A stretch of DNA of 60,624 bases, the filler included, from Hausera hauseri (Eukaryota), in assembly GCA_046269625.1 (NCBI GenBank). It is 10 parts of 10 records of this genome, joined end to end, with 100 filler letters (N's around TTAATTAATTAA, not from the genome) between each part and the next. Parts side by side here need not be neighbours in the genome. Positions count along the whole stretch, not along the records: positions 32,349 to 42,944 come from JBJURY010166642.1; 9 more parts are not named here. One strand, written 5' to 3'. Positions within the stretch are counted from its first letter, which is position 1; every line of letters begins with the position of its first letter. The notes under the pieces are model-generated. The model had not been told where the DNA came from. It did not search any database and worked only from the letters and a program-made list of their open reading frames with translations. The position numbers and the translations under genes were made by a program. Positions 16,335 through 58,470 of this stretch are shown one piece after another.

Positions 16335-16599
16335 AAGAGATTATTATTAATTCTATTAAGATTCCCCTTGCCTATTGTGCAGAAGGCACACCTTGGGCTA
16401 TGGATTCCAGGTCCATTACCCTCACATGGCACCAAATATCCACTCCATTTATAGTCTACAAGGAACTTTCACACCTATAGGAATGGTCCGTGCAATCTGC
16501 CTAAACCAATACTCCATAAATCCTGCAGAGATAACCATTGCTAACATGAATTTTGTCGTTCTTGCTTGAGAGAGTGGTTACTAACATCTACATCCTGCT

Positions 16600-21500: not shown

Positions 21501-22521
21501 GCTATACATCCTTATTCATTAGGTGTTCCGATGAACTTGCGGTCAACCAATAATCGTTGCTTCCATGGCTTTATCACCCAATTTCCGATCCATGCTGAAC
21601 ATCATAAGCAAACCATTTGCGCAACCCCTCTTCAATACCAATTTTCAACTTAATTTCCGAAAAATTTATTTGTTATGACAAAATTACACAATTAGAAAAT
21701 AACGACAAATCAAATAAATAAACTGAAAAGAAAATTACCCAAATCTCTTACGGGTGAAGCGTTGACATTGACGTTATTTCCTTCTGCCATTATTGGTTAT
21801 AACGATAAGTTTTGTAATACTGCAATAAACTTTAATTTCTTGATAAATCATAATATGTAAATACCTAGTCTTCTTGAGGTCCAACAATGATTCTGTGGAT
21901 GTGAGAATGAATATCTACTGTTTTTGCGTGTTTTTGAGTGTTTATTGCACAGGTATTTATAGTGGGTCGTTCGACACCACAACGTTTGTTTCCATTTTTA
22001 GAAATGGAATTTTTTAATTTTCAAAATTGGAATGTTCGACACCATGTCGTTTCGTTCCATTTTTAGAAAATGGACTTTTAATTTTACATATTGTTTTTTG
22101 CATTTGCAATTTCAATTTTTTATAATTATTCAGGTTTATAATATTCAAAACTTATATTTTCTACAACCTATTCTACAACCTATTTTATAATTTACAGTTT
22201 TCAAATTATTCAATTTCGTTCTTCATAACATATCTTTCTTAATTTACTCATTTATTTTATAACGTATCTTTCCAGTTTACCCATCTAGAGCTAGGGATAC
22301 ATTAATTGTACAAAAGACAGGAAAAATAGGAATGTCCATCATGTGGGACTTAACATGTTAAAACAAAAGGAAATTGAGGCCAATTTTTTAATCAATTACA
22401 ATGTACATATTCATCACCAAAAATGTGTATCAATGAAGGTGTAGTTTCATCATCACAATGTTGTTTAAAGGTTCGTCATCACATCATCATCGCAATGTTG
22501 TTTAAGGGGTCGGAACAGTTC

Positions 22522-25245
22522 CACCACCATCTATTCGACCACTGATTTAGCTAAAGCATACCATCAAATACCGGTGGCACCCGACGACATAGAAAAAACG
22601 GCCGTCACTACTCATTTTGGTCTCTACGAATACCTGTTTATGTCATTCGGTTTGCGGAATGCCGCACAAACTTTTCAGCGGCACATTGATTCAATTCTTT
22701 TTGACTTCCCGTTTGCACATCCTTATATCGATGATATTCTGGTCGTTTCATCTTCGGCCAAAGAACATGAGGAACACCTTTGCGCAATATTCCAAAGTCT
22801 TAACCACCATAATCTCCAAGTCAATTTTGACAAATTCCATTTCTTCAAAAAGCGCATTAACTTTTTGGGCCACGGTATTTCACCAGACGGTCATTCTCCC
22901 CAACCAGACCGAGTCGAAGCTCTCAAAAACATCCAGTTGCCACGTACAGTCACCGAAATGCGCAGCTTCCTTGGCACACTACACTTTGTACATAAATATG
23001 TATCATATTGCTCCTAATTGACAGCATTATTCGCACACCTAAGCGGTGGCAAAAAAACATCAGCCAATGCAGTGGACACCTGAATTTGTTGACAAATTTG
23101 ATAAGCTACGCAAAGGAATTAAGACCGTCGATATTCTAGCTTTTCCCAAGCCTGATGCAGAACTTATCCTTACTACAGACGCGTCAACCACTGCAGTAGG
23201 CGCCGTACTCCACCAGATCTACAAGGGAGAAAACCAACCACTGGAATTTTTTTCTCGCAAGCTAACAGCACCTGAAACCAGACATTCCACGTTCGATCGA
23301 AAACTATTGGCCATCGTTCTCGCTCTAAAGCATTTCTCACACCTACTTGTCGCTCTTCATTTCACTATACAAGCCGATCACAAGCTCTTACTTAACATCA
23401 TGTCTATGAAACACCCTTCCACACTCCAAGAACGCCAAATATCATACTTATCGACATTTAACTTCGATATTAAACACATTAACGGGGTTAACAATTTAGG
23501 TGCTGATTTTTTATCTAGGTCGGTTAGTTCGACTAATTTGTCACCGATTTTTACGCAATATCAACTTCAACAGAACCAACCACCTCAGGACATGCTTGAT
23601 TCTTTCAAATCTTGCACAATCGTTGAATGCGTGGCTATAGACACCCACAAATCAAGCCATTCCGTAATAATTCTAGCACCATCATTGCAAAGGCAAGCAT
23701 TTCACAATGTGCATTCACTACACCATCCTGGTGCTAAAGCCACTTTTCGTCTACTCCATCAACAATTAATTTGGCCGTCAATGCGTTCTGATGTTCAGGC
23801 GTGGCTTAAGGAGTGTGTGGCTTGCCATTTAAAGCCACCACTGTTCCACTTTCCCTGCACATCGCGTTTCGAATCCGTGCATATCGACATCGTCGGCCCT
23901 CTTCCTCCATACAACGTCATCAATTCATTCTCACCATGATGGACCGTTCCTCGCGATGGCCAGAAGCCATCCCTCTGCGCAGCACAAATACCGACACTAT
24001 TGCTGACGTTTTCATTCTTACATGGATTAGCAGGTTTGGATCACCTTGCTTCATCATCACGAACCAGGGTCCACAGTTTGAATCCAACCTGTTCAAATCC
24101 CTTGTTAACTGATTGGGGATCCATCACATACATACTACGTCTTATCACCCCCAATCGAATGGCCCTTTAGAACGTTTCCATCGAACATGGAAAACGTCTC
24201 TAAGAATTCTTGCAGAGTCCAACACTAGTTGGACGAATCTTCTTCCGTTCGTTCTGCTCGGCTGGCGGAACATTCCGTCCACTTCTACAGGATGCTGACC
24301 TACTGAAGCCTTATTCGGAGCTCCTGTCCGATCATTATTCGAACTAACTGCCCTAGACGACACTCCGACGGATGAGACGATACGGATGGCGTAAAATCAC
24401 TTTGTCGATGTCAGCAAAAATTTGTTCTGCAGAATATTTCACAAAGACAAAACATACTTACCCAAAGATTTGTATTCGGCGAAATTCATATGGCTAATGA
24501 ATCAAGCGCCTTGGGGTTTCCAGCTGCGGTATCTGGGGCCCTATAAACTGATACAGCTACACTCGCACAACGTCATTATCTCTAAAGACGGCAAAGACCT
24601 TTTAATACACATTACCAACTTAAAGCCCGCTTTCTTTGTCGACGGCACCTTATCAACCGACACGTCAACCTGTTTTCTCACTCCTCCACTCCTTGCTATT
24701 CCTATATCTATTGCTACACCATTTCCACCTTCCTCTTCTGCGCCTAGTCCTGCTCCATCACTTTCTACACTTTCTACTTCTATTCCTACCACTCCCTCTG
24801 TATCATCTGCCTCTTCCACTATTTCACCCAACTCAATTCCAATCTCTACTCCAACTCTGTCCTCTTTTCCTTTATCCGCCACTACACCTTTCATCACTCC
24901 TTCGCCTTCTAACACTCTTTTCAATGCCTTTAACCATCCGTCTCCAACAATCCTTCTTCCTTCTTCGTCTTCTTCTATTTATCCCGCCTCATCTTCCACG
25001 ACACAACACCCCCACCAAAATCTAACAATTTTTCCCCAACCTCAACCTCTGCAAACAAACGAATCGCATAAACACACAACACGCAGAGTCACATTCAGCA
25101 AGTATAACAGGGAAAAATCAGTCGAAGGTACACAACGTCTTATTCACACTAAGCTCCACTGACACAAACCCTTTTCGTTTTGCGAATTTTTCTCTCTGTC
25201 CTTTTTTACTCTTCATAGTTTTAACCTTGCCACGAAGGTGGGTTA
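22522..25245 (+). mobile_element. Ty3/gypsy pol (5'-truncated RT, RNase H, integrase, S/T/P-rich tail)
   Basis: [55 protein letters not shown] and LERFHR. Frameshifted. Confidence 0.95.
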
Positions 25246-27685: not shown

Positions 27686-30600
27686 CCCCCCCCCGGTGGG
27701 AAAGTTGAAACTATGCAGGATAAAAGAAAAAGAGAAAAAGGCGCAAAACGAAAAGTGTGTTAGCTGAGCTTAGTGTGTATAAGGCGTTGAATACCTGCGA
27801 CTGATTTTTCCCTACTATATTGGCTGAATGTGACTCTGCGTGTTGTGTGTTTGTGCAGTGTGTTTGTTTGCAGAGATTTATGTTGGGGAAAAATTGTTAG
27901 ATTTTAGTGTAGATGTTGTATCGTGCGAAGATGAATAGGAAGTTGAAGAAGGAAGAGTGATTGTTGAAGATGGAGGGTTAAAGGTATTGAAACGAGTAGT
28001 AGAAGACGAAGGAGTGATGACAGGTGTAGTGGTGGATAAAGGAAGAGAAGAAAAAGTTGGAGGAGAGATTGGAGTTGTGTTAAGTGAAAGAGTTGAAGAA
28101 GATGATGATACAGAAGGAGTGGTAGAGATAGGAAGAGTGGTAGGAATAGAAGGAGGAAATGTAAGAAATGATGAAGCAAGACTAGGCGTGGGAAGGGCAG
28201 GTGGAAATGGTATAGTAATAGATGTATGGATAGCAGGGAGTGGAGGAGTACGTAAAGAAGCTAGCGTGTCAGTTGGTAAGGTGTCGTCGACAAAGAAAGC
28301 TGGCTTTAGGTTAGTGATGTGTACTGTGAAGTCTTTACCGTCTTTGGAGATGATTGCATTATGCGAGTGTAGCTGTAACAGTTTGTAGGTACACAGATAC
28401 CGTGGCTGGAAACCGCAAGGAGCTTGATTCTTCAGCCATACGAATTTGGCCGTGTACAAATAATCGGGTAGTTATGTTTTATCTTTGTGAAGTATCCTGC
28501 AAAACGAATCCTTGCTGACATCGACGAAGTGATTTTGCGCCGCCCGTATCGTCTCATCTGTGGGAGTGTCGTCTAAGGCGGTTAATTCAAATAATGATCG
28601 GACAGGTGCTCCGAATAAGGCTTCAGTCGGTGAGCATCCTGTAGAAGTGGATGGAGTGTTCCGCCAGCCGAGCAGAACAAACGGAAGATTGGTCCAACTA
28701 CTGTTGGACTCTGCGAGAATGCGTAGTGATGTTTTCAGTGTGCGGTGGAAGCGTTTTAGGAGGTCGTTCGATTGGGGATGATAAGGTGTAGTATGTATGT
28801 GATGGATTCCCAATCGGTTAACAAGGGATTTGAACAGGTTGGATTCAAACTGTGGACCCTGGTCCGTGATGATGAAACGAGGTGATCCAAACCTGCTAAT
28901 CCATGTGCCAATGAAAACGTCAGCTATGGTGTCGGTGTTTGTGCTCCGCAGAGGGATGGCTTCTGGCCATCGCAAGGAACGGTACATCATGGTGAAGATG
29001 AATTAATGACCGTTGTCTGGAGGAAGACGGCCAACGATGTCGATATGCACGGACTCGAAACGCGATGTGCAGGGAAAGTGGCATAGTGGTGGCTTTAAAT
29101 ACTTAGCTGTTTGGTATTTTTGGCATGCCACAACCTTAACCCATGCCTGCACATCAGAATGCATTGACGGCCATATTACCTGTGGGTGGAGAAGACGAAA
29201 AGTGGCTTTAGCACCAGGATGGTGTAATGAATGCACGTGGTGAAATGCTTGCCTTTGCAATGAAGGTGTTAGAATTATTACTGAATGGCCTAATTTGGAC
29301 GTGTCCAAAGCCACTCAGTCAACGATTGTGCAAGATTTAAAAGACTTAAGCATGTCTTGAGGTGGCTGGTTCTGTCGAAGTTGTTCTTGCGTAAAAATCG
29401 GAGAAAAATTAATAGAACTAACCGACTTAGATAAAAAATCAGCAAACAATTGTTAACCCCACTGATATGTTTAATATCAAAATTAAATGTCGACAAGTAT
29501 GATATTTGCCGTTCTTTGCGTGTGGAAGGGTGTTTCATGGCCATGATGTTAAGTAAAGGCTTATGATCTGTTTGTAGAGTAAAATGACGAGCTACAAGTA
29601 GGTGCGAAAAGTGCTTTAAGGCGAGAACGATTGCTAATAGTTCTCGATCAAACGTGGAATATCGGGTTTCAGGTACGGTTAGTTTTCGAGAGAAAAATTC
29701 CAATGGTTGGTTTTCTCCCTTGTAGATATGGTAGAGTACAGCGCCTACAGCAGTTATTGATGCGTCAGTGGTGAGGATGAGCTCTGCATCAGGCTTGGGA
29801 AAAGAAAAATATCTACAGTATTGATGCCTTCGCGTAGCCTGTCGAAATTGTCAACCAGGTCATGTGTCCACTGGATTGGCTGATGTTTTTTGCCGCCGCT
29901 TAGGTGTGCAAATGGAGCTGTTAATTTCAAGCAATATGGTACATATTTATGCACAAAGTGTAGTGTGCCAAGGAAGCTACGCATTTCGGTGGTTGTACGT
30001 AGCAATTGGATGTTTTTAAGGGCTTCGACTCGGTCTGACTGGGGAGAATGACCGTCTGGTGTGATAACGTGGCCTAAGAAGTTAATTGGTTTTTTGAAAA
30101 AGCCACATTTGTCGAAGTTAATCTGGAGATTATGGTGGTGAAGAAGTTGGAATATTGAGCGAAGATGTTCTTTATGCTGTTTTGCAGAAGATAAAACGAC
30201 TAAAATATCGTCGATATAAGGGTGTGCAAACGAGAAATCGGAAAGAATGGAATCGATGTGTCGCTGAAAGGTTTGTGCGGCATTTCGTAAACCGAATAGC
30301 ATAAATAGATATTCGTAGAGACCAAACGGAGTAGTTACTGCGGTTTTTTCGATGTCTTCAGGTGCTACCGGTATTTTATGGTAGGCTTTAGCTAAATCAA
30401 TGGTTAAATAGATGGTGTTGGAATTAAGGCGATGTAAGATATCCTTGATGAGTGGTAAAGGGTACGCATCCATGATTGTCAAGTTGTTTAGCTCTCGGTA
30501 GTCACCTCATGGTTGAAAAGTACCGTCTTTTTTGTACCACGTGTAAAGGTGATGACCAAGGAGATTTGGAACGACGTATTATGCCGGAGCGTTCTAGTTC

Positions 30601-32248
30601 GAGAAATTTGGCTTCTACGGCCTGTCTACGGCGAACTGACAGAGGCCGTACCTTTTGGCGTAATGGACGTTGATGCTGTGTGACTATATGGTGTAGGGTG
30701 CTGTTGGCAGAAGTAAAAGTACGATCTTTTTTAAGTACACGTGGATAAGATTTGTTAATGAATTGCTGTAATGTTGTAGGTAGCTGTGATAGATTCGGTG
30801 AAAGTGGATGAACGGTTTGAGTGGTAGCGGATGCGATATGTGAGTGGTTAAATGACGTGCAGTTAAGTGGTATTTGGTGTAAGATAATTGAATTGAAAAT
30901 AGTGTTGGCTGAGGTATTTTCGTCGAATGAGTTAGCGTTGGTGGCAGTACCACACTTATCGACATCAAATCTCGATCGTATATCAGTGTTATTGTTTAAA
31001 AATTTCCGAACTGAATTATTATTATGAAAATTCGAATTATTGTTATAAAAAATCGAATTATTCGCAGACTTTTTTAAGATTGACTTTCGCCCCACGGTCG
31101 ACTGCGCGGTAGTCAAAATGCTATTTACATGATCAGAAATGTCGCCAACGGTGCCTCTCCTCAAACATCGCTGGCTGCAGTCTACTAGTAGGTTATAGTG
31201 TGAGAGGAAGTCAGGTCCTAGGACTGCCGACTGGACGTTAGCGACTGTAAACGACCAGCGGAAAGATGTAGAGAAAGCAGGCAAAGTGAAAAATAATGTA
31301 GACGTGCTCGAGATGTGCAGCGGCTGGCCTGAAGCAATAAATAAAGGCTTAAGTTTGGATGGAGAGTTTTGTGTAGGAAAGGTTTGCGGTAATAGAGAGA
31401 TTGCGGCCCCTGTATCAATAAGGAAGTCAAGAGATTGAGTTGTAGAGGCAGTGATTGCTGCCTTTAGAGGAAAGACAGCAAAGGAAACATGTCGGCGTTT
31501 AGAATGTAAAAGAGTGCCTTTGCTAAAATCTGCCGTGACTTCTGGCGGCGAACTTAGTTTTTTTGAAAGGGTGAGTTAGGACGACTGTGAGAAGTGAAGG
31601 CAGTACGTCCGTCGTTCGTGTTAGATTTGAAGGTACAGCCAAGTGTATATTTACGTGCTTGATTTTTGAATCTCGCATGATAAATGCAAACCACGGTGTC
31701 CGAGGAAAACTTCTGGTTATAAAATTGGCAACCTAGGCAGCATTTCTGAGCATTAGTGTTGTATCTGCTGTGGCACTAGCAGATCGACGAACGCGCAGGC
31801 GATGGGGAGCGGTTTCGTGACGTAGAACGGGTACGGGAGGCGGCAAAACCCCCTCGTTGGGACAAAGACAATTCATTTAGTTTATTATTTATGTTGTTGA
31901 TAGTTGCCTGCAATGCAATATTTTTAGCACGTAGCTGATTTATCTGCCGTTCTATGGGAGTGTTAGTTGTTTGTATGTCGTTAGCAGCAACTGCTGCTGA
32001 AACCACGGGTTGTGAATTTATGTTTAGGACGTCGTATGTCCTATCGGCCAATTCGGCCAATTTTTCAAGCGGCGTGGAGTCGCCCACCACGGTAGGAAGG
32101 CTCCGGATTTGGATAGGTAGGGCGTTCATAAAGTAATGACGTAGAAGATCCGGGTTATGTTCCCTAGTGACGCCAAGAGTACGCAAGTGTGCTAATGAAG
32201 TACGTAAGAAGTCACTGGGTTTTTGCGTGCCCAGTGCATTTTCGTTAA
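27686..32248 (-). mobile_element. Ty3/gypsy element, near-complete gag-PR-RT-RH-IN; same family as contig E
   Basis: Gag 32248-31560, protease FLIDTGAAISL near 31400-31430, RT YPLP/DLAKAYH/YIDD, RNase H DRELLA/TDHKPL, integrase HIDIVG/TDQGPQFES/YHPQSN and an S/T/P-rich tail. The 5' end is cut by the contig edge. Confidence 0.95.
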
Positions 32249-32348: not shown

Positions 32349-33253
32349 GTCTTTCTAACATTTCGTATACTGTAAATCCGGTCACAATGAATTTATACAA
32401 GCAATGGTTTATATCTTCTTGGACTTCTATGAAATCTTTGTCCTTTTCGAGTTGTAACTTTGTGATTCCTGTAACATCGGGAAACGTATCTTTTACTTTA
32501 GTTCTAGGTGCAATTATTTTGTCTATAATCTCTTCTACATTTGTGCTTCGGATAGAGACTTCAATTGGGGTGTTACATCCATCGACCTTTTCCCCATAGT
32601 TTACGTCTAGAATTTGAGTATTCCTCCGTCTGGAACTAGCCTGAATGATTCTCCATTTCGTTCTATCTCATCCTCGGAGTGCTTCTGTATACACAATATA
32701 GGTGATAGTGGCCTCATCACTTCTGTTCGTAGGGTTAACTCGAACATAAGCTTGGTTGGATGTTCTGCGATTCTGAACTCCAAAGCGTAATTCATGAGTC
32801 TATAGCAACATAGCTCATATGTACTAAATTTCCATTGTTGCCCCTTCTAAGTACTACAGGATTGTCCTACGATTCTGTATTGTATTTCTCCATCAGCGAC
32901 ATGTACGTACAATTGCTGATGCGTTGGCTCATATGGAATCATGTCTCTTAATAGGTATGCTCGTGCATCTTTTGGGCTTCGCATTGCGTATAATCGGATT
33001 AGTCGATTTTCCTCTGTGCCCCCTTTCAATCTATTTGGTATCTTGTTTTCCTGATTGATTCCTACATAAGTTTTATTTTCCAGATTTGCTTCAATCTGGC
33101 GATATAAGCTTTTGGTTGTTGGTTTGAGAACTGTTACATGTTGCTGCAGGAAGTCGTCGATATCGTAATTGAGACTGTGCTAAGTTCTTCGCCTTTTCGG
33201 CCATACTTACTCTGCTGAAATAAAGATAAAGATCACTCCTAAGACATCATCAT
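32349..33253 (-). pseudogene. Accessory ORF with signal-peptide-like start, function unknown
   Basis: MMM / LGVIFIFISAE hydrophobic start, basic KRRR, then a long frame with scattered stops that includes ORFs 33029-32847 and 32795-32607. Confidence 0.45.
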
Positions 33254-33358
33254 TTTGAAACAAAACATTTTCGCTATCTGATGATAGGATAAGCCGATCT
33301 CTAATTGTCATGTTATGTTATCATAAAGTCCGTCTTGGTACCCTTTTACTTTTTACCT

Positions 33359-34610
33359 TTATTGATTTTGACACCGTTTATTATAGTTTTTGGAAACTAA
33401 GAAAATCGTCGCTGTTAATATGACAAGAACGAAAACTGACAAACTGAAGATAGCTATTATCGGCAAGTTATTCGGTTCAATAGAATTTTCCGTAGTAATT
33501 GTATTTTGGGTACTGGTATCCTTCATTGTCAAGGGTTCGTACTGTAAGAGTTTTATGTCTCCTACCTAGTGCGGTAATTTTAGTCACATAATCGTTTTGT
33601 GGTCGTAGGGATTTGCATTCATTTTTTGTGGTTATTTTTCCTTAAGATTACAGTTTGACTAGTATATAAAGTACGACATTCAATTTTAATTTTATAATCT
33701 ACTGTTTCTTCAACATAAAATACAATCTTATTAGGCCGCGCCAAAATTCTAACATGTATGTTTTCCAGTTCTTTCTCGGGCATTTTACTCGAAGTGACAA
33801 TATTAGTAATGAGAATTGTACTTGGAATGGTAGACTGCCTTCTCGTAGTCGTTGGGAGCGAGAGTTCCCATATTGCGATTTTGGGCGATATCCCCTCAGA
33901 TAAGTACTTGGCTTGTTTGGGTAAATATTATACAGATCAAATTGTAATTGATAGTTGTGTCCGAGCGGTAATCTGCAGCATGTAGTGGATCGTCATCGTG
34001 CAATAAAACAGTGTTCCGTAGGGGGAGTCGAGGTGCCTAGTGGTATAAATCGAATAGAAATTTGTCTGTCTCCTGGCAGCTCTATTTTGGATTTAATTCG
34101 AATACATTGGTTCTGGAAGTCTTTGGAGATTTCATTAATGTTATAATCGAGAAGTCTTTTAAATGGATCGGTATTTCGGACTATTTTGTCCGTCTAGGCT
34201 TGGTTTGTGCCGTTACGTTCAGATATTTTTATTTCAAGTTCGGTAATTATATAGGCTTGGGCTCCAGGTAGATTATAGTAAAACATTTGAAACTTGTATC
34301 GATATGTTCGTTCAAACTCTAAGTCACAACATTTCTTATGGGCTCCATACGAAAAATCACACGTCTTCATCTCGATACCAATTTTATTCATAAATATTAT
34401 TTGAAACTTTACGTGGTACTGAACTAGATCGTTTGCCTTGAACCAGGCACAGGATTTGCTCCAATCCATATCGTATACTCTGAGAGACTGCAGGTTTTGG
34501 ATATCTCTCCATCTTGCCGCATATTGTTGCTTTTCGGTCAGAGTTATTGATCCGATTTTCGGTATGTACGAAGCTATTAACGATAGAGCAAGAACTATTT
34601 GTACATAGGA
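33359..34610 (-). pseudogene. Type I membrane protein fused downstream of integrase
   Basis: Hydrophobic YVQIVLALSLIASYI is in frame with the integrase tail. Two related C..C..CCxL...Y...F domains, a Thr/Ser-rich stretch, TM LPIIAIFSLSVFVLVILTATIFLV and a short tail follow. Confidence 0.6.
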
Positions 34611-34679
34611 TACCGGTCTTGTTACTATCGACGATGTTTTCTTCTCTCTCTTGGTTTGTCTCGGATTTTCTTTACTTGA

Positions 34680-35998
34680 ACGCAAATTATAGCGTTTAAT
34701 TGGCCTTATTTCCGTTTTGACCGCTCTCTGTATGGATACGACCTCTTCTTTGTCATTTTTATTAATATAGACTGTAGTTGGTATGGTTCTGATAATCTCG
34801 TAAGGTCCTCTGCCGGTACGAGTGAGTTTTAAAGATGTGCCTTTCTTCGCAACCGGATAATGCACATAAACTCCATTTCCTTTCTCCAGGTCATGTGGTT
34901 TAGCCTTCTTATCATATTGCCTTTTAAATTGCTCTTGATATTCTTTGGACAATTCTTTGGCTATTTCCCAACATTTGTGTAGCCTCGTCTGCAATACTTC
35001 AGTGAAATATTGTTCTAGATCATCTGTTTTCACTGTATACGGTATCGTTCCTAAGTCTGTGGGTAGTACAGCTTCTCTACCATACATCATAAAAATGGAG
35101 TAAATCCTGTTGCAGGATGTGTTGTAGTGTTTATGGCAAACTGTGTACCTTCTAAAAATTCATTCCAATCTTTCTGGTTTTTCGCAACTACTGTTAATAA
35201 GATTCGTATAACGATCGCGTTCGTCCGTTCGACCATTCCGTTACATTGCGGGTGGTAAACCGTTGCGGTTAATCGTTCAATTTCAGATATTTTGGTAATC
35301 GTTTCGAATAGTTCACTCGTAAAGTTCCTTTCTCGGTCTGTCAGAATTTGTTCAAAAGGTTCGCACCTGCATATTATTTTCCTTACTACGGCCTCTGCCA
35401 GAGTCTCAGCCTTTTGGTCCACTAATGCCATCATTTCAACGAAATGATTTAATCTATCTATACATGTCAGAATGTACTTTTTATTTTTATGAGTTGTAGG
35501 TAACGGATCTACAATATCCATTGACATCGCTTGCATTGGTCTATCCGGCTCATTTATTGGTTTAAGTTCGGAGATGTAGTTTTCGATTTTTTTCAGTTTG
35601 GTTGCGCATACTTCGCAGGCGCTTACCCAATTATTTACACTAATATATATGCTTGGCCAATAATACTTATTTAATATCCTTTCTAATGTTTTCTTCCATG
35701 ACATGTGTCCAGCTAAGTATGAGTCATGTTTGGCCATTAGTATTTCCATGCGTAATCCCTTCGTTATGACTACCAACTTCCGTCCTTTTCGCTCATAATA
35801 CAGTACATTTTCATGGCTCGCGTCTCTTGTTACGGAGTATTTGTGACCATATTTTTGCAAATGTTTCCGTAATTGGTGTCCTTTTAGTGTTATTTCTTTT
35901 TCTACGAACTCAATGATTTGTTGTATAACCTTGTCCTTCCTCTGCTCAACAGAAATTTTAATCGCTTTATCCAACGCTAGAGCTCGTTGTCTGTCCAT
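34680..35998 (-). pseudogene. Integrase
   Basis: HDSYLAGH...CEVC zinc finger, SMDIVDPLP, LTDRERNFTS, YHPQCNGMVER and GPY module (GRGPYEI). Confidence 0.95.
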
Positions 35999-36010
35999 CA
36001 GTTCTTTAAG

Positions 36011-37330
36011 CTATGCTTTTCTCGTTATAGTAATTTTGCTCGTTTTAGTTTTATGCCTTGATAGTGCATCTGCATCGACATGTTTGCTTCCGGGTTTGTA
36101 TTGAAATTCAATGTTATACCATGAGATCTCTTCGATCCATCGATTGAGTCTATATGTTGGGTTATTTTCTCTACATTTCAAAGTTGTAACCGCTTTGTGA
36201 TTTGTAACAATTATAATTTTCTGACCGTAGACGTATACATTAAAGTGTAGTAGAGCTTCTTTTACAGCTAACGTTTCTAGTTCGGTGATCGAGTAATTCT
36301 TTTTGGACTTCTTTAGTGACCGTCCTCCATATGCGATTGGATGTTCTAGTTCTTCATCCTCTCGTTTTTGAGCTAAATCATACCCAATGCCTTCTTTGCT
36401 GACACCTGTTTTAATTATAAACGGCAGGTTAAAATCAGGATATCTTAAAACAGATTCGCTAGTTAAGATTTTCTTCATTTCTTCGAATGCTCTTTGTTTT
36501 ATGTCCGTCTATTTCCATTTGATTCCCTTTTTAAGTAATTGGTATGAAGGTACATTTATTTTTGAATTATCCGGTACGTAAGTGGCGTAATATCCACATA
36601 AACCTAATCAATGCCTCAGCTCCTTTTGGTTCTGGGGTTCCATACAATCCGATATCTTACTTAGCAATGATTTATCCTGTTTCGATCCGCCTTCTCCAAA
36701 TATATGTCCGAGATAGGAAACAGCGTTTTGGGCCCATTTACATTTCTTCGGATTCAATTTCAGTTCAGCTTGCTCCAACCTCATGAGCGTATACTCAATA
36801 TCCTTTAAATGCTCTTCTTCTGTTTTCGATGCAGTCATTACGTCGTCCAGGTACATAAACGCGTGTTTCAGTCCCATTAGCATCTTGTTCATCATTCGAG
36901 TAAAGATGGCTGGTCCAGTAGTTATTCCGAATGGCATGACATTGAATTCATATACACCATCGTGTGTTTTGAACGCATTTTTGTAACGACCTTCTTCTTC
37001 TATTTCTACTTGCCAATATCCTGATTGTAGATTGAGCGTGGTAAACCATTTGGCTCCGGAAAGTCTATCTAGGGCTTCTTTTACCGATGGCAGTGGGAAA
37101 GAATTTTTCATCATAAGTGTGTTTAATGCTCGATAGTCAATACAAAATCGGTGCTTTGTAGTACCTTTCTTCTTAACCATGAGTATAGGTGAGTACCAAA
37201 ATCTATAGTTTGGTTTAATTATGTCGGCCTTTAACATTTGTTTGACTTCTTTTGTTATCTCAGGCCTTAATGAGTGGAGGTAGGATACCGTTTTGGCATC
37301 TTTTAATCTTCTAAGTCTATTTTGTCATTG
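36011..37330 (-). pseudogene. Reverse transcriptase and RNase H
   Basis: YLDD at 36842-36853. RNase H NYSITELETLAV, TNHKA and HVDADALSR. Confidence 0.95.
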
Positions 37331-37494
37331 GATCCCGGCTTTTTCTTAAGTGGAATTGTTAGACTCAACGCTTTTGCTCTGCCTATGCCTTCTTCATCTT
37401 TTGCGATGACTGAGCTATAATGACAAAGTAACCGTTAAAATCGGCAGTATGCTTCTGGTGAAAATTTAGTTTCAACGTGCGGTGGGAATTCGGC

Positions 37495-38394
37495 TCACTT
37501 GTACGGTTTTTCTTTAACGATTATTGATGATACTCCATATATGTGACCTAGGGTGGTATTGGCATACAATTTGATCGGAGTTGGTGCATTATGGGCTATT
37601 CTAATGGGCACACGGCCCGTCGATACCCTTGTTAATACGTTATTGAGCACGATGTTTGGGTCTAATGATTCCTCGGGTTCAAAATACACTGGCTGGTCGT
37701 CGTATTGACTTATTTTGACATATATTAGTACCTTGATTCTCGGCGAAATATTCTCGTCCACTGGAATCCATACTTCCCCGAATTGCCTATCTTTAGTGGT
37801 TTTGACTCCTTTTATCGGGCCGAGTTCTATTAATTTCCCCGCATGGAAGTCTATCGGAGTATTGGGTAATTGTCTCAACAGATCGCATCATAGGACTACA
37901 TCATATGTTAATTGCTCCGTTACTGAAAATTTGTGACGAAATGATTGTCTCATTATGTGGATTTCTGGTTTCCATCGGAATTTGCTTTTCGATGACTGTC
38001 CGAAAACTCCAATACTCTCGGGATCTGTTGTCGGAGGTGGGTATAAATGTTTCCTTAGAAACTGCGGTATCGAATCGTGCTTAATCAGTGATATATCGGA
38101 TCCCGTGTCTATTAGTGCATAGAATTCCCAATCTTCCAACTGAATTTTCGCGAAGGGTCTACCTTCGATTACCGTGCCATAGTGATTTGGTGCTATTTTT
38201 GGGCCTTGGATCCCTGTCACCTTATAACCATTAATTCTAACTTTAGTAGTTGCAGCTGGCTGGTCGATCAGCTGTCTTAGCTCTGCGTTAGGGTACATTT
38301 CATTGTTCCTGCAATTAACGTCTCCCGTTTCTTGACTTCTAATTGGCGGCTGTATTTCCCGGTCTCCAAAATTCCGCACCTCATGGTCTCTCAA
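37495..38394 (-). pseudogene. Aspartic protease and post-protease region
   Basis: ALIDTGSDISLI (DTG at 38101-38109). The VL*CDLL segment corresponds to the usual ILGxDFL motif with a premature stop. Confidence 0.9.
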
Positions 38395-38403
38395 AAATGT
38401 TGA

Positions 38404-40640
38404 TCAAAATTCATTGGACCTGGGTATTCTAGGTGAATAAATTATTCCCTGGTCGTCGACCGCTGAACAATGATATGAAACGGATGTTCTCCTTGTTTCG
38501 CGCACTTTACGCAATATAACGTAGTATTTCGTTCCCTCATATGGATCTTCCAGACTGAGCGGCTTCCTATAGATACCCGTTTGATATGAGCTCATAGACT
38601 CTTTCTCATAGTCTTCATATATAGGTGCAGTTGGGGGTAATATTGGCAAGGTTGGTTTTATAACTGAGTAGTTTTTGTTTCTATTTGTTCTCGTAACGGC
38701 GTCTCCTGCCTTAGGCTCGTCATTGTCAGAGTTATCTCTTCGTGTCTTGACATTTACGAATTTACGTCTGTAACTAAAAATGTGTCTCTTTTTACGTTTT
38801 CGATTATAATAGCCGACATGTCGCTCCACATCTGTCTTCCACCTACTTTCTTCGTAAGCCTTTAAAAATTTGTTGAAAGGTGTGATAATAGCCGTTAAAA
38901 TTTTGCATGCGAACTCTGTCAAGGTGAATATCTCATATTTATTTATAATCGCTCGAATTATCGCTTTAACCAGTTGAATTAAGAAATAGATTGCTAAGAA
39001 TCCGGATGTGGCTTTTCCGAATATCAGAAATCTTCCCCAAATTTTATACAGTATTTCCCATTTCGCTTGATAACGTAAATCCTCTAGTATTGTATGCATC
39101 GCTCTATTTAATTCATGCGTACGTTGACGTGGGAAAGCGAGAAATTGTCTAAATGCCTCTACTTCTTTTGGCCGGTAAATACATTTTGCTGCTGTGTCTT
39201 GAAACTTATCATCGGTTATTCCTTTTATTAGATTTGTTCCTGTTAACATAGTGGGCGGCGTAACTATTCCACAGTTCGGTAAACTTACCCAATCGATCTC
39301 GTTACGTTTAAACATTGGTTCTCCCAAACTGGTCATACAATTTTTCAGAACTGTCGGTTGGGTAGAGTTTGCCAGCAATACTCTCATAATTGGCGTCACT
39401 AATCTCGGTATGTCCCGATATATTAATGGAACTTCTTGAATGCACCTTTTCTCTTCCACATTAATAGGTACATCCTTCTTTTCGCACTCGTAGATCAGCA
39501 GAACTTTACCGGTCATTTGTCCAAAAACACTTTTTTTCATCGGAATTATTGGTGACGCTAACTCGGGATTGGCATATATTAAAGCTAGTTTGGTTCTCAT
39601 AACTTCTACGTTTAGTTTGCAGTCGTTTGTTATCATCTTGTGGTATAACTCAGTTATTCCGGCTTGTCCCTTGTAGTAAAAATAATCATCTCTATTTTTC
39701 AAATAATCTTCAATTAGAATATCTTGAGTTTCCTGCTTGAACGTTCTGATATTTATCTCGGTTTCTGCTACAAAGAATGCTTCATAATTGGTGGCGTAAA
39801 TTACTACGTCACACCTTGTGAAGACATCTTTCTTCACAAACTTCAACCCTTTGGTATCGGAAATTAATATTGTAGGTGTAGGCTGTTCCGCTACATTCTC
39901 TCGCATTTTTGAGTTCATCTCCGTATTACTAACGTAGTGTTTCCCTGTTGTTTTGTTAAATTTAAGTTCTTTAATTTTAATAAAATTGCAATCAGTCTTG
40001 GCTGGAGGTTCCCAGATTACTATTGAACTTCTAAAAACACAGGTGCCATCCTGGATGTGACACTTTTGGTTTCCCGTATAAAGCTATGAAACATCACCTT
40101 TTGTATGTGCATTTCGGTTTCGTAGAAATCCACAACCACTATGTTTGATTCCAATCCTTTTCCAGTATCGTATTCTGCACCATGGCAGTGACCAGTATTC
40201 ATATCTAATCTTCCTGCTGCTACTTTATATGTTCTGATTATCTTCCTTTGCTGCATTTCTAATTCCATGCCGTCCCATTTCAGCCTGCCTGTTTCTCTAG
40301 CTTGCTTACAATATTGGCGGTCCAAGTTCATTGGGATTAGTGGGGTCGTCGGCTTGATTATAGATGAATGCCCGTGTATTAACCACAATGGAAAATACTG
40401 CGAGATCGTCGCAACATGCATTCTATCCCATCCAATGCGACTAACTCTCGTTGCTGATAGAGGACATATCTTTTTTCTTTCGTTTCTAGTTTATGTGGTC
40501 TCGCATCTTTGCACATTTCCAAACCTATCAATGAATATTTCTGGCCAAGTCTGAATTTGTCGCAATCATATATGGTAACTGCTCCCATTTGCCTTATAGA
40601 CATCACCACAGTCAGGAAATTAATTAACCAGTTTGATTTG
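38404..40640 (-). pseudogene. Chuvirus-like (Jingchuvirales-type) envelope glycoprotein
   Basis: Signal WLINFLTVVMSIRQMGA then IYDC, YSL..LEMC, ECMLRRSRSIFHCG..GHSS, GHCHG, CHIQDGTC..IWE..DC, LYHKMITNDCKL...LALIYANP, GKVLLIYEC, CIQEVPL..VTPIMRVL, IY..EVEAFRQFLAFP, and a TM near 38945-39040. Motif order matches chuvirus glycoproteins as I recall them. Two internal 1-bp frameshifts. Confidence 0.75.
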
Positions 40641-40659
40641 TTTCCTCGATTACTTCCGG

Positions 40660-42944
40660 TTAAGTTTCGTACACGTCTTCGAATCTACTATTATTACTAA
40701 CAAACGGTCCGTTCTGTCGTCCTTCATCTCTTTCGAATAGTTTGGTCCAATCTACTTTCCGGGGTAATTTTCTAGCGGCCTTTCGCGCTAGACTAGTGGC
40801 CTTATTAAATTCATTTTCTCCGGCTTGGTTCGTTCTAATGGCCAAGTATAATAATACTTTCGGCAGTTCTTCTATGGTGTTCTATACCATAAATTTCTCG
40901 ATCACCAATTCATTGCTTAAGGTGCTTCTCGATAATTTGTTGCGGAAATTTTTCATTGTTCTGGCTGCATTCAATATAGATTTCTCCTTTTGGTCTAGTA
41001 TATCGCCATAGAGACTAGAGTGGTTTACTATACGTATCAAATTTTTCATGAGTTCATTTAACTCTTCGTTTTCCGTGTTGAAGGTTGGTATGGACATTTG
41101 CCATAATTCTCTAATTAGATCTCCATTATAGTCCATTTCTTCCCGTGTTTTTCGCGGTCTACCAACAGGATGCTTCTGTTTCGCTATTACCGATGCGGTT
41201 TCACTAGGTGGTACTAAATTCTTATCATACTGTTCTTTATCCTCATCTGTTTGTAAGTATTCAAAATACATTGCTGCGTCTCAAACGCCGATAATCCGTC
41301 CTACACACTGATCAATTTTGGCTTTTCTTGTGTCTTCTTCAACGTCCATTACCGGAAGTTTGGCGTAACAATGTTAATAACTGACATAATTCTTCGGCTA
41401 GAATCAGTCCTCTTTCTTGATAACTTGTTAGTTCATAGGCTACGTCTCTTTGCCATCTTTGCACAAACTGCGACTTGTCGGCTTTCTCCGCTTCCGTAAG
41501 AGCATATTTATTTCTATAGGTCTCGAGCTTGTTCAGTAAATCGTCTAGTCTTATTGCTCTCTGTTTGGTTTTAATTCAATTTTCTTCGATTTGGCGTATC
41601 TGAGGCAACAATTTTCTTATCTTCTCATCGTTAATTTCCTCCATTTCTACCATTAGATGCTCTAAGTCATACATTTCATTAATTTTTAAGTCCGAATCTA
41701 TTGCATCCGATAATTTTTTAGAAATCTAGCTTCTTCGACTCTGAGATGGTGGTCGTCTCTGATCTTTATAAGGTTGGTATGACATCTCTGGTCCGTTCCG
41801 ATCATAAATTCCTGTGGGTCGTGTAAAAATTTTATTGCCTATTCTATCGCTGATCGGTGCTCCGTACAAACGTCCAACGTTTCCAGATCTTGAATCGAGA
41901 TCCCTTTAATAGGTTTCGTTGTCAAGTGCTGAATTCCTTCTAGGCGGACGTTTCTTAGCCTCGGATAGAAGTTACAAGTCATTTTTCGCTTCTGTGTAAA
42001 GTCTATTTCTTCAATCATTTTGAATATATTTTTCAATATCGTCATCTCTTGTTTCCTTTTCATAAAGTTCAATTGACATAATGCATTAAATTGATTCCTA
42101 ATATCTACTTCCGCTCTCATTATATCCAGATTGCTTGCATTTTCTTCTAATTGTTTCTTTACTGTAGGCTCACTTTCTGGGAACTCTTTTATACGGTCTT
42201 CTACTAATTTGCTCAGTCTCGTTATTACCCGAGACCATTCGTCTAGCTGGTTGGCGATATTCGTCTTCGTTAATATTATTTTGTCTAGCATTTTATATGC
42301 GTCTTCTAATTCATCATCTGGGCCTTTGATGAAACTAATAATCCGGTATGCGTAGTTGAATTCATCCTTATATTCATCAATTTCAAGGGTACATGCCTTA
42401 ATTGTGTTTTATGTCTCGTCGTTGTCCAATTTCGTGATTATATTTCTCAAACTATATATCTGTGACTTTTTTTTATTTTCGATGTTAATACGATTTTCCA
42501 GACTTGTATATTGTTTTGATGCGGTGGAGGCAATTTTTATCATCTCCATTAATGGTGGGATATCTAGCGAACTTATACCCAACAATTCCAAATCCACTTG
42601 GTTTTGTTCCCCGACCGCTTTTTCTTTGAGCCTCCTAACCATTTCGAATCAGATTTCGTCAATAACGCGCTCCAAGTTACGTGTTACCCTTTTTAGTTTT
42701 GGATTAACTTCTAATGTATTTCATAATGCTTGGGCCTTTTTTATTCCTGCTTCTACACTCTCTGTATGTCTATCCCACGCTTCAGGGAATTTTACTCCAC
42801 TTTTTATCCATGCTTCTAATGCATGTTTCCGTTTTACTAGCGTTTCTGGAGGAATTTCCTCAGGTTGCCCTAGGTCTGTAGCTTCGCTCAGTTTTCCTTC
42901 ACTATATAATTTCATTTTCTTGTATAATCTTTCTATAAATTGTT
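40660..42944 (-). pseudogene. Long coiled-coil, charged ORF in the gag position; identity unknown
   Basis: ORF pieces starting at 42915, 42642, 42291, 41271 and 40845 all share one frame. Rich in E/K/L/I heptads, with no CCHC knuckle. Confidence 0.6.
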
Positions 42945-46413: not shown

Positions 46414-46670
46414 TTTATCAGTTTGGACTAGATTCCGTTATTAAAATGACCACAGTTCCTGAGGTGATTTTAGCAAAGGAATTGGGATCGTGTTATGGCG
46501 CAGTTGCAATGGTGATCGATCTCGATAGTTGGCATGAGGAAAACGATTCGTTTGACGTACACGATGCGTTGACTGTTGTTAAAATTAATTTGGAAATTCT
46601 CGAGAAAATTGATCTTGAAGTGGTTAAATTAATTAACGAAGAGAATTGGGCCGAGACAATTAAGAGTTAG
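46414..46670 (+). pseudogene. MTAP: S-methyl-5'-thioadenosine phosphorylase C-terminal exon (divergent or fragment)
   Basis: VIKMTTVPEVILAKELGSCYGAVAMVIDLDSWHEE...NWAETI matches MTAP. Upstream exons are not recognisable. Confidence 0.75.
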
Positions 46671-48399: not shown

Positions 48400-51300
48400 T
48401 GCTTTTTGGTTACTGTAGGGTTTTATTGAAGTCAAGGTATCTTAGGTGCACTCCTGGTGCGACTCGATACCGGTGTGGCAGGGGTTTGGTTGCGTATTAT
48501 CGTACGTTCTGTTTCAGGAAGTATGGGCGTTAGAGTAATGTGTATTTCAGTTTGGACCGTGGTCGGGTCATATTCTACGGGAATGTCCATATTGAATGGA
48601 TCAAATTTGTCGTAGTTTTCTCAAAGCTTATCTACTTCTGACATACTTGGTCCGTCTTGTTGGATATGATCTTCCGTATCGGAATCATGATATCCGAATG
48701 CGGGTTTTACGTTCGACAATTGGATTATATGTTCATCATTGTCGCGTAATATTCTCGCATTGTGCTCGGTGATTTCTATGAGCTTGTAGAAACCCGTGTA
48801 GTACGGTTCAAACCCGTGTCTTTGTTGGCTGTTTTGCCAGACAAAAAAAGCTTCTTGTAAATTCTTCTGCACGAGTGGTTTTTTGTAATTGCTGTAGAAT
48901 GCAGCGTTCGTGTCTATTAACAGGAAATGCTTCCGAGCTTGGTTGAGGGCAGGGATGAAAGTTATTTTCTCGTTGCTCACCAGATCTTGCGGGAATGTGA
49001 GATTGGCACTAAATAATAGTTGTGTTGGATAGGCATCAGTGCTAATGTTCGGAGTGTTTCTCCACCTAATGACATAATGGGTAATGCATCCAGCCAGTTT
49101 TTGTTATCGTGGCTTAGGATTCCTAAGAATGATTTTAGTGTACGATGAAATCGTTCGATCAAACCAATCGCTTGTGGATGGTTGGGCGGTATATGTATGT
49201 GCTTTGAACCAAGCGATTTGGTCAACTGTTTAAACATGACTGATTCGAATTTGGTAATCGATCTGTTATAATGTTTTCAGGTACTCCAAACCGAGAAATT
49301 CACGTATTTACTAATACAGCCACAACGCTTTGCATTGTTATTTGGCGGATTGGAATGGCTTGGGGCCGTCTTGTTTTCCGGTCGATAATGGTTAGGATGT
49401 ACTGATATCCGTTACATTCGGGAAGTGGTCCTACTATGTCCATGCAGATAGTCTCAAACAGTGAGCCAGTAGAATAATGTAGGATTGGTGGTTGTATAGT
49501 ATGGTTGGTTTTATACTGTAGCAAAGCGAATATTCTTTTGTCCACCACTTTAAATCGCTTAGCATATGAGCCCAACAGACTTTACTGCTTAATAGGTGAG
49601 CTGTGGCTTTTGATCCAGGATGATGGATGTTGTGAATGGTGTCAAATGCCTGTTACCGCAGGTTTTCTGCCAGAATTGGGCGTGGACAACCATTGAGAAT
49701 GGTATTGTAGTGTATCCCATCCTTTGTGTCAACTGCTTTGAAGAACGTAACATCGTCTTCATGTGGAGGGTTCGATTGCAGACACTCTTCCGTAAAAATT
49801 GGATAAAAGGACACTGTCGATATCCCAGTTCTGGAAAAAAAATCAGCAACTGTGCTATCTTTTCCAGTTATGTATTCTATCTGGAATGAAATTTCCGATA
49901 GAAATGAGATGTGTCGCTCTTGACGAGGCGATTGGTTTTTCATACTAATCATGTCACTGAGTGGTTTGTGATTCATGCGGATTGTGAACACATGTCCTTC
50001 GAGTAAATGTCTGAAGTGTTTAACGCTGAGAATAATTGCTAGTAAATCTCGGTCGAAAGTTGAGTAATGTTGCTTAGCCGAATTGAATTTGTGGGAAAGG
50101 AATGCAATGACAGCATTTTTTCATTGGATTGATTGGACAACTATTGCACCTGCAGCGATGGTGGATGTGTTTGTTATTAAGATAAACGGTGCATCGCGTT
50201 TAGGATTATACAATGTAGGTATGTGAAGAAGCGCCGTTTATGCATTGGCAAATGCCTGTTGAACATCATCTGTCCAGTTTACCTTAAATTTTTTGTATCC
50301 TTGGCTTGGTGCAGATAGAGGTTACAGGATTTCTGAGCATTGTGGAATGTAACGATAGCAGAAATTGATTGTGCCAAGAAAGCTGCGAAGTCCACTCACT
50401 GTGGATGGCTCCGGTATTTGTTTGATGGTTTCTAGCCGCTCAGGAAGAGGACTGTGACCATGTGGTGTTAACCTCAGTCTGAGATATGCTGCTTCAGTTT
50501 TAAAGAATGAACATTTGTTTATGTTCACCTGTAGATTGTTATCATTCAACCTATGAAAGACGTGTTCGAAGTGTGTTTTGTGAGTCGCTTCATCAGGTGA
50601 TGCCATCAATATGTCATCTATATATGGGATTGCATAAGGCATGTCGATGATGGTTTGGTCTATGTGGCGTTGGAATGTTTGACTTGCATTCCCTAAGCCG
50701 AATGTCATGCGTAGGTAGTCGAACAAACGAAAATGAATTATTATTACTGTCGTTTTTGGAATGTCTTTGGTAGGAACTGGGATCTGATGGTATGCCCTTT
50801 CAAGATCGATTGTGCTGAATATTGCGGCACCATGTAGGCGATGCTATATGTCGGTTTACCAACGGTGTTGGGATGAATCGTGGATGGTGACATAATTTAA
50901 CATTATATAGTCATCAGAAGGCCGGTATGAACCGTTCTTTTGAGAACCATGTGCAATGTTGATGCACATGGTGATGTAGAGCGGCGTATTAGGCCAGCTT
51001 CTTCAAGGTGTCGGAATTCGGCTGCCGTAGCTGCTCTCTTGACAGGGTCAAGCTCCCTCTGGGGTTGTCGAATCGGTCGATCACATGAAGTGACGAAAAA
51101 ATGTGATGTTTTCACCTCTTTCTGTATTGTTTATGTTGAGTGTTTCGACAAGTTAGGGTATTGCGCTTGGAGCAGTGGTGCGATGTCAATGGGATTCGTG
51201 ATCTTTATGCCCGTGACCTCGTTTTTGGTTAGCGTGAATGTGGGTGGAGGTAATGGATTGCTCGTGCTGGTAAGTTGTTGATTTCGGCAATCAACTGTGA

Positions 51301-52499
51301 GATCGTAGTGATCTAGGAAGTCAGAACCAAGGATTGGTTGCATGACATCGGCCAATATGAATGACCAAGCGTATGGTCGGCCTTGTAGGTGAAATTGTAG
51401 GTACAGTGTACTTGTGGTTTCTATGCGCGTGCCATTGGTAGTTTTGAGTGATGCATGCGAGACCACAGTAGGTCTAGCCTATGCGCTAGGTATCAGCGAT
51501 AAAGCTGCACCAGTGTCGATTAAAACGTCTAGCTGTTTCGAGATGTCGGAGTGTAGTGGCTCCGCCTCGAGGGTGAAGATAGCATCGACAATGCGTTCGC
51601 TATTTGTATACGGCAGTTGTGGTGATTGGGTTTCCAGCCGATGTGCCGTTGGTCGTCTGAGCCCATTTTGTTTTTTGACGGCTTGTGAAATTTGCAGTCG
51701 GATCGACAGGCTTTTGCGTCTGGACCGAAATGGTTGTGATAAATGCAAGTGTCTTGCATTTTTACTTTTGCCGATGACTTGTCGAATTGGCAACCATGGT
51801 AGCATTTGTAGGCGGATTCGCCAAATCGAGTGTGGAAATGGCAAATTTTGGAAAATTTGCCTTTCTTTCGCTTAAGGAATTGGCGCCGAGATTGCGGTTT
51901 GTCTATGTCTGGCGGATTCTTGTGCTTTACAAGTGCTTACAATGTGGCAATGATAGTGTCCAGCTGATTTTACTATGTCATTGTGACGGAATGGATATTT
52001 TCCGTCAGTGCGGATTCTACAGTGCCTTTAGTGCATTCGTATATTTTGTCGGCTTTTGATGCCATATCGTCCAAAGTGGTATTGGGCGGGAATAGCACCA
52101 ATGCCGCTTGAATTTGATTGGGCAAACTACTTAGGAAGTAGCGCCGTAGTATGCGCTGCTTGGTGTGGAGGTCCAATTCAGCATTGCTCAAGTCTGAGCG
52201 TAACTTGTGAAGCAGAGCAAACGGTTTCATATTGCCTGTCTGTCGCTTGGTGAAGACCAAGTTGAACTTGTCCTGTTGGGATGGCAGATATTCTTTGCAT
52301 ATGGCTGCTTTGATTTTGTCGAACGGTTTTCATCTGACAGTAGCGTGTCCAGACCCGTTATTGCTGCAAGCGTTGTTGGCTTCAGGTATTGAATGAGTAT
52401 TAAGGCATTGTCTAAATGGCCGGTGATGCTGCATTGAGTAGCCCATGTTTCAAACACATGGAACCACTTCAATGGCGTTCCGTCCAAACCTATGAAGAA
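48400..52499 (-). mobile_element. Ty3/gypsy element gag-PR-RT-RH-IN, decayed
   Basis: Gag with CIYHNHFGPDAKAC, PR VLIDTGAALSLIP, RT FGLGNASQTFQR/YIDD, RNase H STFDRDLL/HKPL, integrase MDIVGPLP/HPQAIGLIERFHR. Confidence 0.95.
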
Positions 52500-58109: not shown

Positions 58110-58470
58110 AAGACGCTGAAACCTGGAAATTTAATGTGTTTCGATTGAACAGATTTGCAGGAGGTAATTCAACGCTTGTTACCTTCGGTGTGAAAGTTTT
58201 GAATCTTGTGGTTTAATTGATCATTTCCAGCTCAAAACTGACTGTTTAAAGAAGTTTCTCCATTCAATTCAGGATGTTTGTCATAATTCAAATCCATATC
58301 ACAACCCATTGCATTCAGCTGATGTAGCTTAGGCTATGCATTGATTTCTTTCAGATACGAAAATTAAAAGCATATAGGAACCCATAGATGTGCTCGAATG
58401 CACCGTTGCAGCGTTTTATCATGACGTCGACCATCCAGGACTTAACCAGCACTATTTAGAAAATCAATTA
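58110..58470 (+). pseudogene. Cyclic-nucleotide phosphodiesterase catalytic fragment (PDE7-like)
   Basis: WKFNVF..GNS.LV..GLIDHF...NPYHNPLHSADVA*AMH*FL...AAFYHDVDHPGLNQ. One frameshift and three stops; truncated. Confidence 0.85.

Follow-up and report, generated by a model that had tools for sequence, protein, structure and literature searches.

The DNA window analysed here, 60,624 nucleotides from Hausera hauseri (GenBank assembly GCA_046269625.1), consists of small contigs that are rich in repeats and joined through spacers; one of these (JBJURY010166642.1, 10.6 kb, positions 32349-42944, with spacers on both sides) is occupied by a copy of a Ty3/gypsy retroelement that codes on the minus strand through both contig ends. 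Along that strand, the copy harbors a 5′ polyprotein region, a virus-type fusion glycoprotein, a linker, a protease, reverse transcriptase (RT) and RNase H, an integrase, a second membrane protein, and a separate exonuclease-like open reading frame (ORF). Very probably, it is an internal piece, now decayed, of a multicopy element from the Ty3/gypsy lineage in which env precedes pol (Burro-like, GAG-ENV-POL), with a gB-type fusogen before Pol and, after the integrase, a membrane protein predicted to be fibronectin type III (FN3)-like. This confidence covers identity and architecture only and does not extend to the functions of the repeat protein or the exonuclease. The last two modules were overlooked by the original prediction, an earlier annotation made by eye from the bare sequence, and both are also present in the relative L001.

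The glycoprotein (38870-40684, minus strand) is a class III fusion glycoprotein of the chuvirus/herpes gB type that spans approximately 590 codons and is interrupted by two frame changes. It is matched by PF24664 (Monjiviricetes_fusion) in three collinear minus-strand pieces, at 40684-40382 (model positions 5-87, E 1.2e-5), 40490-40023 (model 89-180, E 8.4e-5), and 40083-38407 (model 196-603, E 2.7e-30), which contain four, three, and ten cysteines, respectively. Hydropathy places two hydrophobic segments at its end (39030-38968 and 38931-38875). The original prediction of a glycoprotein of about 600 codons directly 5′ of Pol on the same strand is borne out, as are its cysteine-rich ectodomain and membrane anchor. 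The predicted signal peptide (approximately 40630-40580) stays below the hydropathy cut-off but aligns to the signal peptides of intact relatives. The class III, chuvirus-type fold that had been expected was recovered from a structure model of 40083-38407 (mean predicted local distance difference test score, pLDDT, of 74; 65-row alignment), for which chuvirus glycoproteins are the top Foldseek matches in a viral library (E 1.4e-15, with 37 matches below 0.001). All rows listed by the PDB fold search are herpesvirus gB, the best at E 1.6e-3 and none reaching 0.001. The env of this copy is thus of the herpes simplex virus gB/class III type. A PDB sequence search with the glycoprotein returned two weak, unrelated rows only, and a word-based search for homologs among long proteins yielded none in 2687 candidates. 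Several divergent copies in the sequencing run X1 (see below) carry approximately 35-40 extra bases near 39056, just before the glycoprotein anchor; this copy therefore belongs to a shorter variant.

Glycoprotein and protease are connected by a cytoplasmic tail and linker (38164-38869, minus strand) in a common frame that is interrupted by a single stop, which agrees with the predicted lack of a break before the protease. The linker contains one PTAP motif, which is not counted as a late domain because, among the tails of 12 relatives, only one has a P(T/S)AP motif. The region was compared with contigs from X1, one sequencing run matching the DNA (no RNA run is listed). On positions 32349-42944, 13,321 X1 contigs were placed that cover all 30 bins, 472 of them at 99% identity or more, 1,471 at 95-99%, 5,993 at 90-95%, and 5,385 below 90%. 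Hence, 11,378 of the 13,321 are less than 95% alike to the copy, and the element belongs to a large, diverged multicopy family along the whole contig, although the summed X1 depth is not a copy number. Between 37950 and 39150, where 8 of approximately 1,390 pieces were viewed, highly differing X1 records overlap across 39054-38062 and thereby tile the linker. The stop before the protease is not shared by most X1 contigs covering it. The glycoprotein-protease junction is genuine.

The retropepsin-type protease (37891-38163, minus strand) retains an intact LIDTG motif and is matched by PF00077 (E 3.2e-6); the stretch 38403-37891 continues the glycoprotein frame after the one stop. It is followed by a spacer (37498-37887, minus strand) that has no Pfam match and is homologous to the corresponding region of L001 (E 5e-8, pairwise); at this place Burro has a dUTPase-like domain. 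RT and RNase H (36014-37324, minus strand; PF00078, E 1.5e-34; PF17919, E 1e-29) are damaged by stops and catalytic losses. The integrase (34650-36010, minus strand) consists of a zinc finger (PF17921, E 2.9e-16), a core (PF00665, E 1.6e-11), and a C-terminal domain past a frame change, and is also matched by tblastn to relatives. The four predicted Pol domains are thus all found by Pfam, with the integrase lying at 36010-34650, beyond the interval that had been proposed. The order of protease, RT, RNase H, and integrase and the gypsy-type domains assign the copy to Ty3/gypsy (Metaviridae), and all matches of the RT search are gypsy-type Pols by domain content.

The same arrangement occurs in intact relatives. 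Searching 1.84 billion representatives with the glycoprotein yielded 271 matches, of which 150 were listed and 16, chosen by length or score, were scanned. Glycoprotein and then protease lie in one ORF in 11 of these 16 (five reach RT-RNase H), the glycoprotein stands alone in three, and it follows integrase-side domains in two. Three more intact cases are P0151, L001, and L003. The relatives align collinearly with the copy. Env-first polyproteins give the best glycoprotein matches (E to 8e-55), and the stand-alone proteins in the viral size range, one of which is named a chuvirus glycoprotein, score E 1e-14 or weaker. A scan for the locus was negative in 480 stretches of viral contigs and in 20 metagenome stretches with P0001 as query, and positive in at least 3 of 593 metagenome stretches with alignment A3 as query. 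Upstream of the glycoprotein, Gag or zinc-knuckle matches were detected in P0008, P0011, P0020, L002, and L003; in L002 a Gag-like start and a zinc knuckle are joined by a weak ubiquitin-like match, and P0005 shows a weak Bcl-2 match. Several retropepsin-like domains each are found in P0003, P0007, P0008, P0151, and L001, with up to seven Pfam stretches in P0151, whose polyprotein also has ankyrin and C2H2 domains. P0001 (HBK71150.1), an env-first gypsy polyprotein of animal type, was submitted as a hypothetical protein from a Flavobacteriaceae metagenome-assembled genome, probably through bin contamination.

In the glycoprotein tree (77 rows; 76 of 152 candidates passed the length filter, and L003 was dropped), the copy falls within a 16-row clade with a support of 99 in the Shimodaira-Hasegawa-like approximate likelihood ratio test (SH-aLRT). 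This clade is made up of the copy, all 12 other rows with glycoprotein then protease, and three rows in which no protease was seen. The stand-alone glycoproteins of viral size, including the named chuvirus glycoprotein, lie outside of it. The glycoprotein is thus not placed among stand-alone viral glycoproteins and lies in the retroelement frame, which does not fit a stand-alone chuvirus-derived endogenous viral element. The RT-RNase H-integrase query, in which stops were read through as X, has its best BLAST matches in P0177, P0151, L001, P0001, and P0007, and its Pol is 40% identical to the nearest relative. In the tree of this region, the copy, eight env-first Pols, and P0177 (5′-truncated, glycoprotein not seen) are united on one side of a branch with a support of 98, set against 27 of the 53 other full-length Pols. 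Dropping one long branch and using a simpler model recovered the same grouping. Glycoprotein and Pol have most likely descended jointly, and the glycoprotein is most likely inherited rather than freshly captured or chimeric, because intact relatives share the order, divergent copies tile the junction, and both trees agree.

The second membrane protein (33362-34628, minus strand) is broken and continues in frame from the integrase C terminus. Hydropathy, a repeat profile, and a fold model describe a type I layout with a signal peptide (34628-34539), up to three β-sandwich (FN3-like) repeats, a Thr-rich stalk, a transmembrane (TM) segment (33475-33380), and a short basic tail. The layout of signal, stalk, and TM also ends P0001, P0007, P0151, P0177, L001, and L003, and P0013 has a post-integrase signal with later hydrophobic segments. 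A signal peptide followed by a later hydrophobic segment is therefore present in all seven clade members that extend past the integrase. The RT search supplied 52 Pols whose core is complete and whose tail reaches at least 60 amino acids; three of them have any hydrophobic segment, and the pair occurs only in P0177, itself a clade member. A repeat resembling Cys-x2-Leu-x-Pro-x-Thr-x-Tyr is common to five of the seven tails. When a profile of eight repeats from relatives was run against the copy, 33641-33480 and 33927-33622 ranked as the top two of 1142 pieces (E 0.0095 and 0.047), and they correspond to the two profile halves, in the right order and separated by a frame change. The model of the first repeat (34550-34197; pLDDT 65, 9-row alignment) is a β-sandwich with six called strands (FN3 has seven) that superposes most tightly on FN3 modules, namely on FN3 of NCAM2 (Z 6.7, root-mean-square deviation 3.0, 96 aligned) and on fibronectin (Z 6.6, 2.7, 90 aligned), with cytokine receptors also among the matches.

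Several results weigh against this assignment. The Cys-x2-Leu motif is unseen in P0013 and L003, and repeats 1-2 of the copy scored no better than shuffles against the profile built from relatives. The FN3 matches tie in Z with Ig-like domains of glycosidases, C2 and Ig domains match as well, and a Z below 8 may mean a common fold only. Foldseek gave no match below E 0.001 for the first repeat, and Pfam gave no FN3 match for the post-integrase repeats. When the post-integrase region was aligned pairwise with four relatives, the best z was 2.1, and an Atlas search with the first post-integrase piece found no usable match. The models therefore support an FN3-like nature of the repeats to a modest degree. 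The number of repeats varies among clade members, and L003 and P0013 seem to have different ectodomains. The polyprotein of L001 contains the signal-repeat-TM module twice, at 4740-5340 between extra protease copies and at 9050-10279 after the integrase, so the module can be duplicated.

Past the polyprotein, a separate broken ORF (32349-33317, minus strand) finishes with a domain resembling DEDD exonucleases of the RNase T family (approximately 32613-32377; PF00929, E 0.012-0.016), which runs off the contig edge. This domain aligns to ORF2 of L001, which is likewise a separate ORF past the polyprotein (z 7.3, 0 of 1000 shuffles) and matches PF00929 itself (E 1.4e-5). The N-terminal part of the ORF gives no alignment to L001 ORF2 (z 0.0). 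From the L001 motif, we take the exonuclease to be DEDDh-like. In P0013, residues approximately 110-290, before the glycoprotein, show DEDD-exonuclease-like motifs by eye and have no Pfam match at E 0.01; by its motifs, an exonuclease may also lie inside the polyprotein in this lineage.

The 5′ polyprotein coding region (40685-42944, minus strand) carries stops and frame changes, leaves the contig at its edge, and encodes a charged, probably helical protein without a recognized Gag domain. In the upstream frames, 2.3 kb long and cut off by the contig edge, Pfam finds no Gag and returns weak, unrelated matches only. A GRP motif near 41160 is presumably AT-hook-like. A Bcl-2-like domain before the signal peptide was considered on a resemblance by eye and is not supported in this decayed copy, as it did not beat shuffles. 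Because coding reaches both contig ends, the element is larger than originally delimited, and gag and the long terminal repeats (LTRs) are unseen; no direct repeats of at least 40 nucleotides occur within 32349-42944. In the relatives L001-L003, paired LTRs, a primer site, and a target-site duplication were likewise not found. The traced frames contain 17 stops, of which one is probably a natural end and three lie in the 3′ ORF region, and approximately 10 frame changes. RT lacks its first catalytic aspartate, and RNase H lacks two conserved residues. Read from these lesions, the copy is dead and therefore cannot be active.

Comparable arrangements have been noted in other animals. Work on nematodes by Sacco et al. 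from 2022 reportedly concerns noncanonical endogenous retroviruses, including a Metavirus with an RNA-virus glycoprotein before pol. Anakin, attributed to Dezordi et al. (2020), is said to comprise BEL/Pao elements with a chuvirus glycoprotein, their env following a BEL/Pao Pol. It would thus share the glycoprotein family with the present copy, which in contrast has a Ty3/gypsy Pol.

The closest described system is Burro/GYPSM1, a giant gypsy element of planarians, in which env lies between BCL2 and protease, matches mononegavirus fusion glycoproteins, and is presented as the first env known to sit in frame between gag and pol (Arkhipova and Yushenova 2019, main text of PMC6431247). According to that text, Burro is encoded by a single giant ORF in which env stands in frame between the gag side and the protease, and it has an extra domain between protease and RT and very many copies, decayed ones among them. 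The same can be said of the present family as far as the contig reaches: env is in frame within one polyprotein, and intact relatives are single-ORF. In contrast to Burro, Bcl-2, BIR, MATH, and ankyrin domains are undetected in the copy, gag and LTRs are off the contig, and the published size of approximately 30 kb compares with a contig of 10.6 kb; the likeness is one of published description, since no named Burro sequence appears among the matches of any homolog search. The main text of PMC6431247 mentions neither fibronectin nor a post-integrase membrane protein, and exonucleases only for other elements.

Gypsy elements with a gB-type env in GAG-ENV-POL order are catalogued in Nematoda, Bryozoa, and Platyhelminthes (Chary and Hayashi, eLife 2026, PMC13524379), with 10 rows for Bryozoa and 9 for Platyhelminthes (Macrostomum, Prostheceraeus, Schmidtea) in supplementary file 1. 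The main text also reports chuvirus-like glycoproteins beside gypsy pol, describes the GAG-ENV-POL elements as not monophyletic, and cites Sacco et al. 2022 for the nematode elements. These errantiviruses resemble the copy in their Ty3/gypsy Pol and in a gB-type env directly 5′ of pol, and the survey differs in that only intact copies were retained. Its main text does not contain the words "fibronectin," "Burro," "polyprotein," or "exonuclease," although figures and supplements could annotate 3′ parts. It is the only paper found by a literature search for "gag-env-pol," and a search pairing gypsy retrotransposons with fibronectin and envelope found none. An exonuclease ORF 3′ of pol is known from gypsy-like LTR elements of rotifers (Rodriguez et al. 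2017, available text of PMC5408684); ORF3 is an RNase D-like DEDDy enzyme there, whereas the domain here belongs to the RNase T family and coexists with env. Troyka (PMC12440569) was examined and, from its available text, set aside as unrelated.

The original prediction had read the locus as an independent capture of a chuvirus glycoprotein by a gypsy lineage and as a candidate new type of invertebrate retrovirus. That the nearest viral folds are chuvirus glycoproteins speaks for a capture, as do the low Pol identity, the long branch of the copy, an approximately unbiased (AU) test that did not reject its move to another clade (p 0.155), and the published lack of monophyly. The long branch and the AU test also weigh against joint descent, together with a warning of long branches meeting in the glycoprotein tree and the RT tree that had been suggested, which leaves the copy unplaced with RT alone and groups it with env-first Pols only when RNase H and integrase are added. 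Yet env-first polyproteins far outscore the stand-alone proteins, which the 16-row clade also excludes, L001 has the same 3′ modules, and the order is already in print (main texts of PMC6431247 and PMC13524379). A capture of its own is thus improbable, and the proposed new type had already been catalogued in three phyla. An assembly chimera or a one-off insertion beside an unrelated endogenous viral glycoprotein would be compatible with a repeat-rich contig built from short reads, with a summed depth that falls in the linker, and with the fact that no single X1 record spans the whole linker from glycoprotein to protease; moreover, X1 may be the assembly's own source. Against this stand the common frame of glycoprotein and protease, the tiling of the linker by divergent contigs, and the shared order of intact relatives that come from other samples; together these make an artifact very improbable indeed. 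Two further points count against the assignment to the env-before-pol lineage: the contig, which codes to both ends, shows no recognized gag, LTR, primer site, or target-site duplication, and the Bcl-2-like domain of Burro is undetected in this decayed copy, where profiles of three and five relatives score no better than shuffles. A decayed member of the env-before-pol lineage with an inherited glycoprotein remains the preferred reading.

For the repeat protein itself, two roles have to be weighed. Adhesion or receptor binding, in analogy to gD, gH, and gL for herpes gB, is tentatively preferred as one possible role, because herpes gB needs such partners and the main text of PMC13524379 calls the entry mechanism of gB-bearing retroelements unknown. 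Host modulation is nearly as likely: the protein could be cargo without a role in entry, such as a decoy receptor or immune modulator, comparable to the Bcl-2, BIR, and ankyrin domains of Burro. Env-first polyproteins do gather host-like domains, FN3 folds are typical of the cytokine receptors found among the fold matches, and the variable repeat number, the second internal copy in L001, and the seemingly different ectodomains of L003 and P0013 fit a cargo as well. On the other hand, all seven clade members keep the layout of signal, ectodomain, stalk, and anchor at a single position, the protein would be made together with the fusogen, and gB-type fusogens normally need partners (main text of PMC13524379).

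The signal-peptide and stop-transfer logic of viral polyproteins suggests that one long polyprotein would be translated at the endoplasmic reticulum and threaded twice through the membrane. A first internal signal peptide would direct the glycoprotein into the lumen, and its anchor would return protease and Pol to the cytosol, for which the second hydrophobic segment after the glycoprotein would have to stay out of the membrane. Past the integrase, a second internal signal peptide would deliver the repeat protein into the lumen, and its anchor would end the chain. Signal peptidase and the element's protease would subsequently free the parts, yielding equal amounts of cores, trimeric fusogen, and the second surface protein, with capsid and enzymes co-made, and the fusogen would allow particles to enter from cell to cell. 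The exonuclease might, speculatively and with little confidence, trim or hide RNA or cDNA. It is also rather doubtful, if conceivable from these parts, that env-first gypsy elements are enveloped retroviruses which encode two-protein entry in one polyprotein, with a gB-type fusogen and a fibronectin-repeat attachment protein, plus a DEDDh exonuclease. If this is true, the gB-type fusogens of retroelements would have the partner that has been missing.

As the env-before-pol order is already known, the copy as first described adds only a divergent, dead member. Of more interest is the conserved second membrane protein. Neither it nor the exonuclease ORF was found in the main texts of PMC6431247 and PMC13524379 or by the literature searches, although figures, supplements, or Repbase may mention them. 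A conserved surface protein that is translated together with the rest and holds a fixed position across the lineage offers a concrete entry-partner candidate and makes the question testable, and an annotation that ends at the integrase misses part of such elements.

Other contigs of the window contain a second, unrelated gypsy family in decayed copies at 22469-25159 (plus strand), 27881-32246, 16591-17930, and 48624-52329 (all minus strand). Two of its copies, 84-88% alike, finish with a Ser/Thr/Pro-rich tail past the integrase. Host exons encode an MTAP-like phosphorylase (46428-46667), a secretin-family G protein-coupled receptor (7084-7365), and a phosphodiesterase (58378-58659), all on the plus strand. 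The context points to an animal host; a homolog search with the MTAP-like exon, aimed at placing the host, gave none among 457 candidates. A weak NUP210 Ig-like match (17827-18084, minus strand, E 1.4e-4) immediately precedes a gypsy gag-like stretch and is perhaps captured host sequence.

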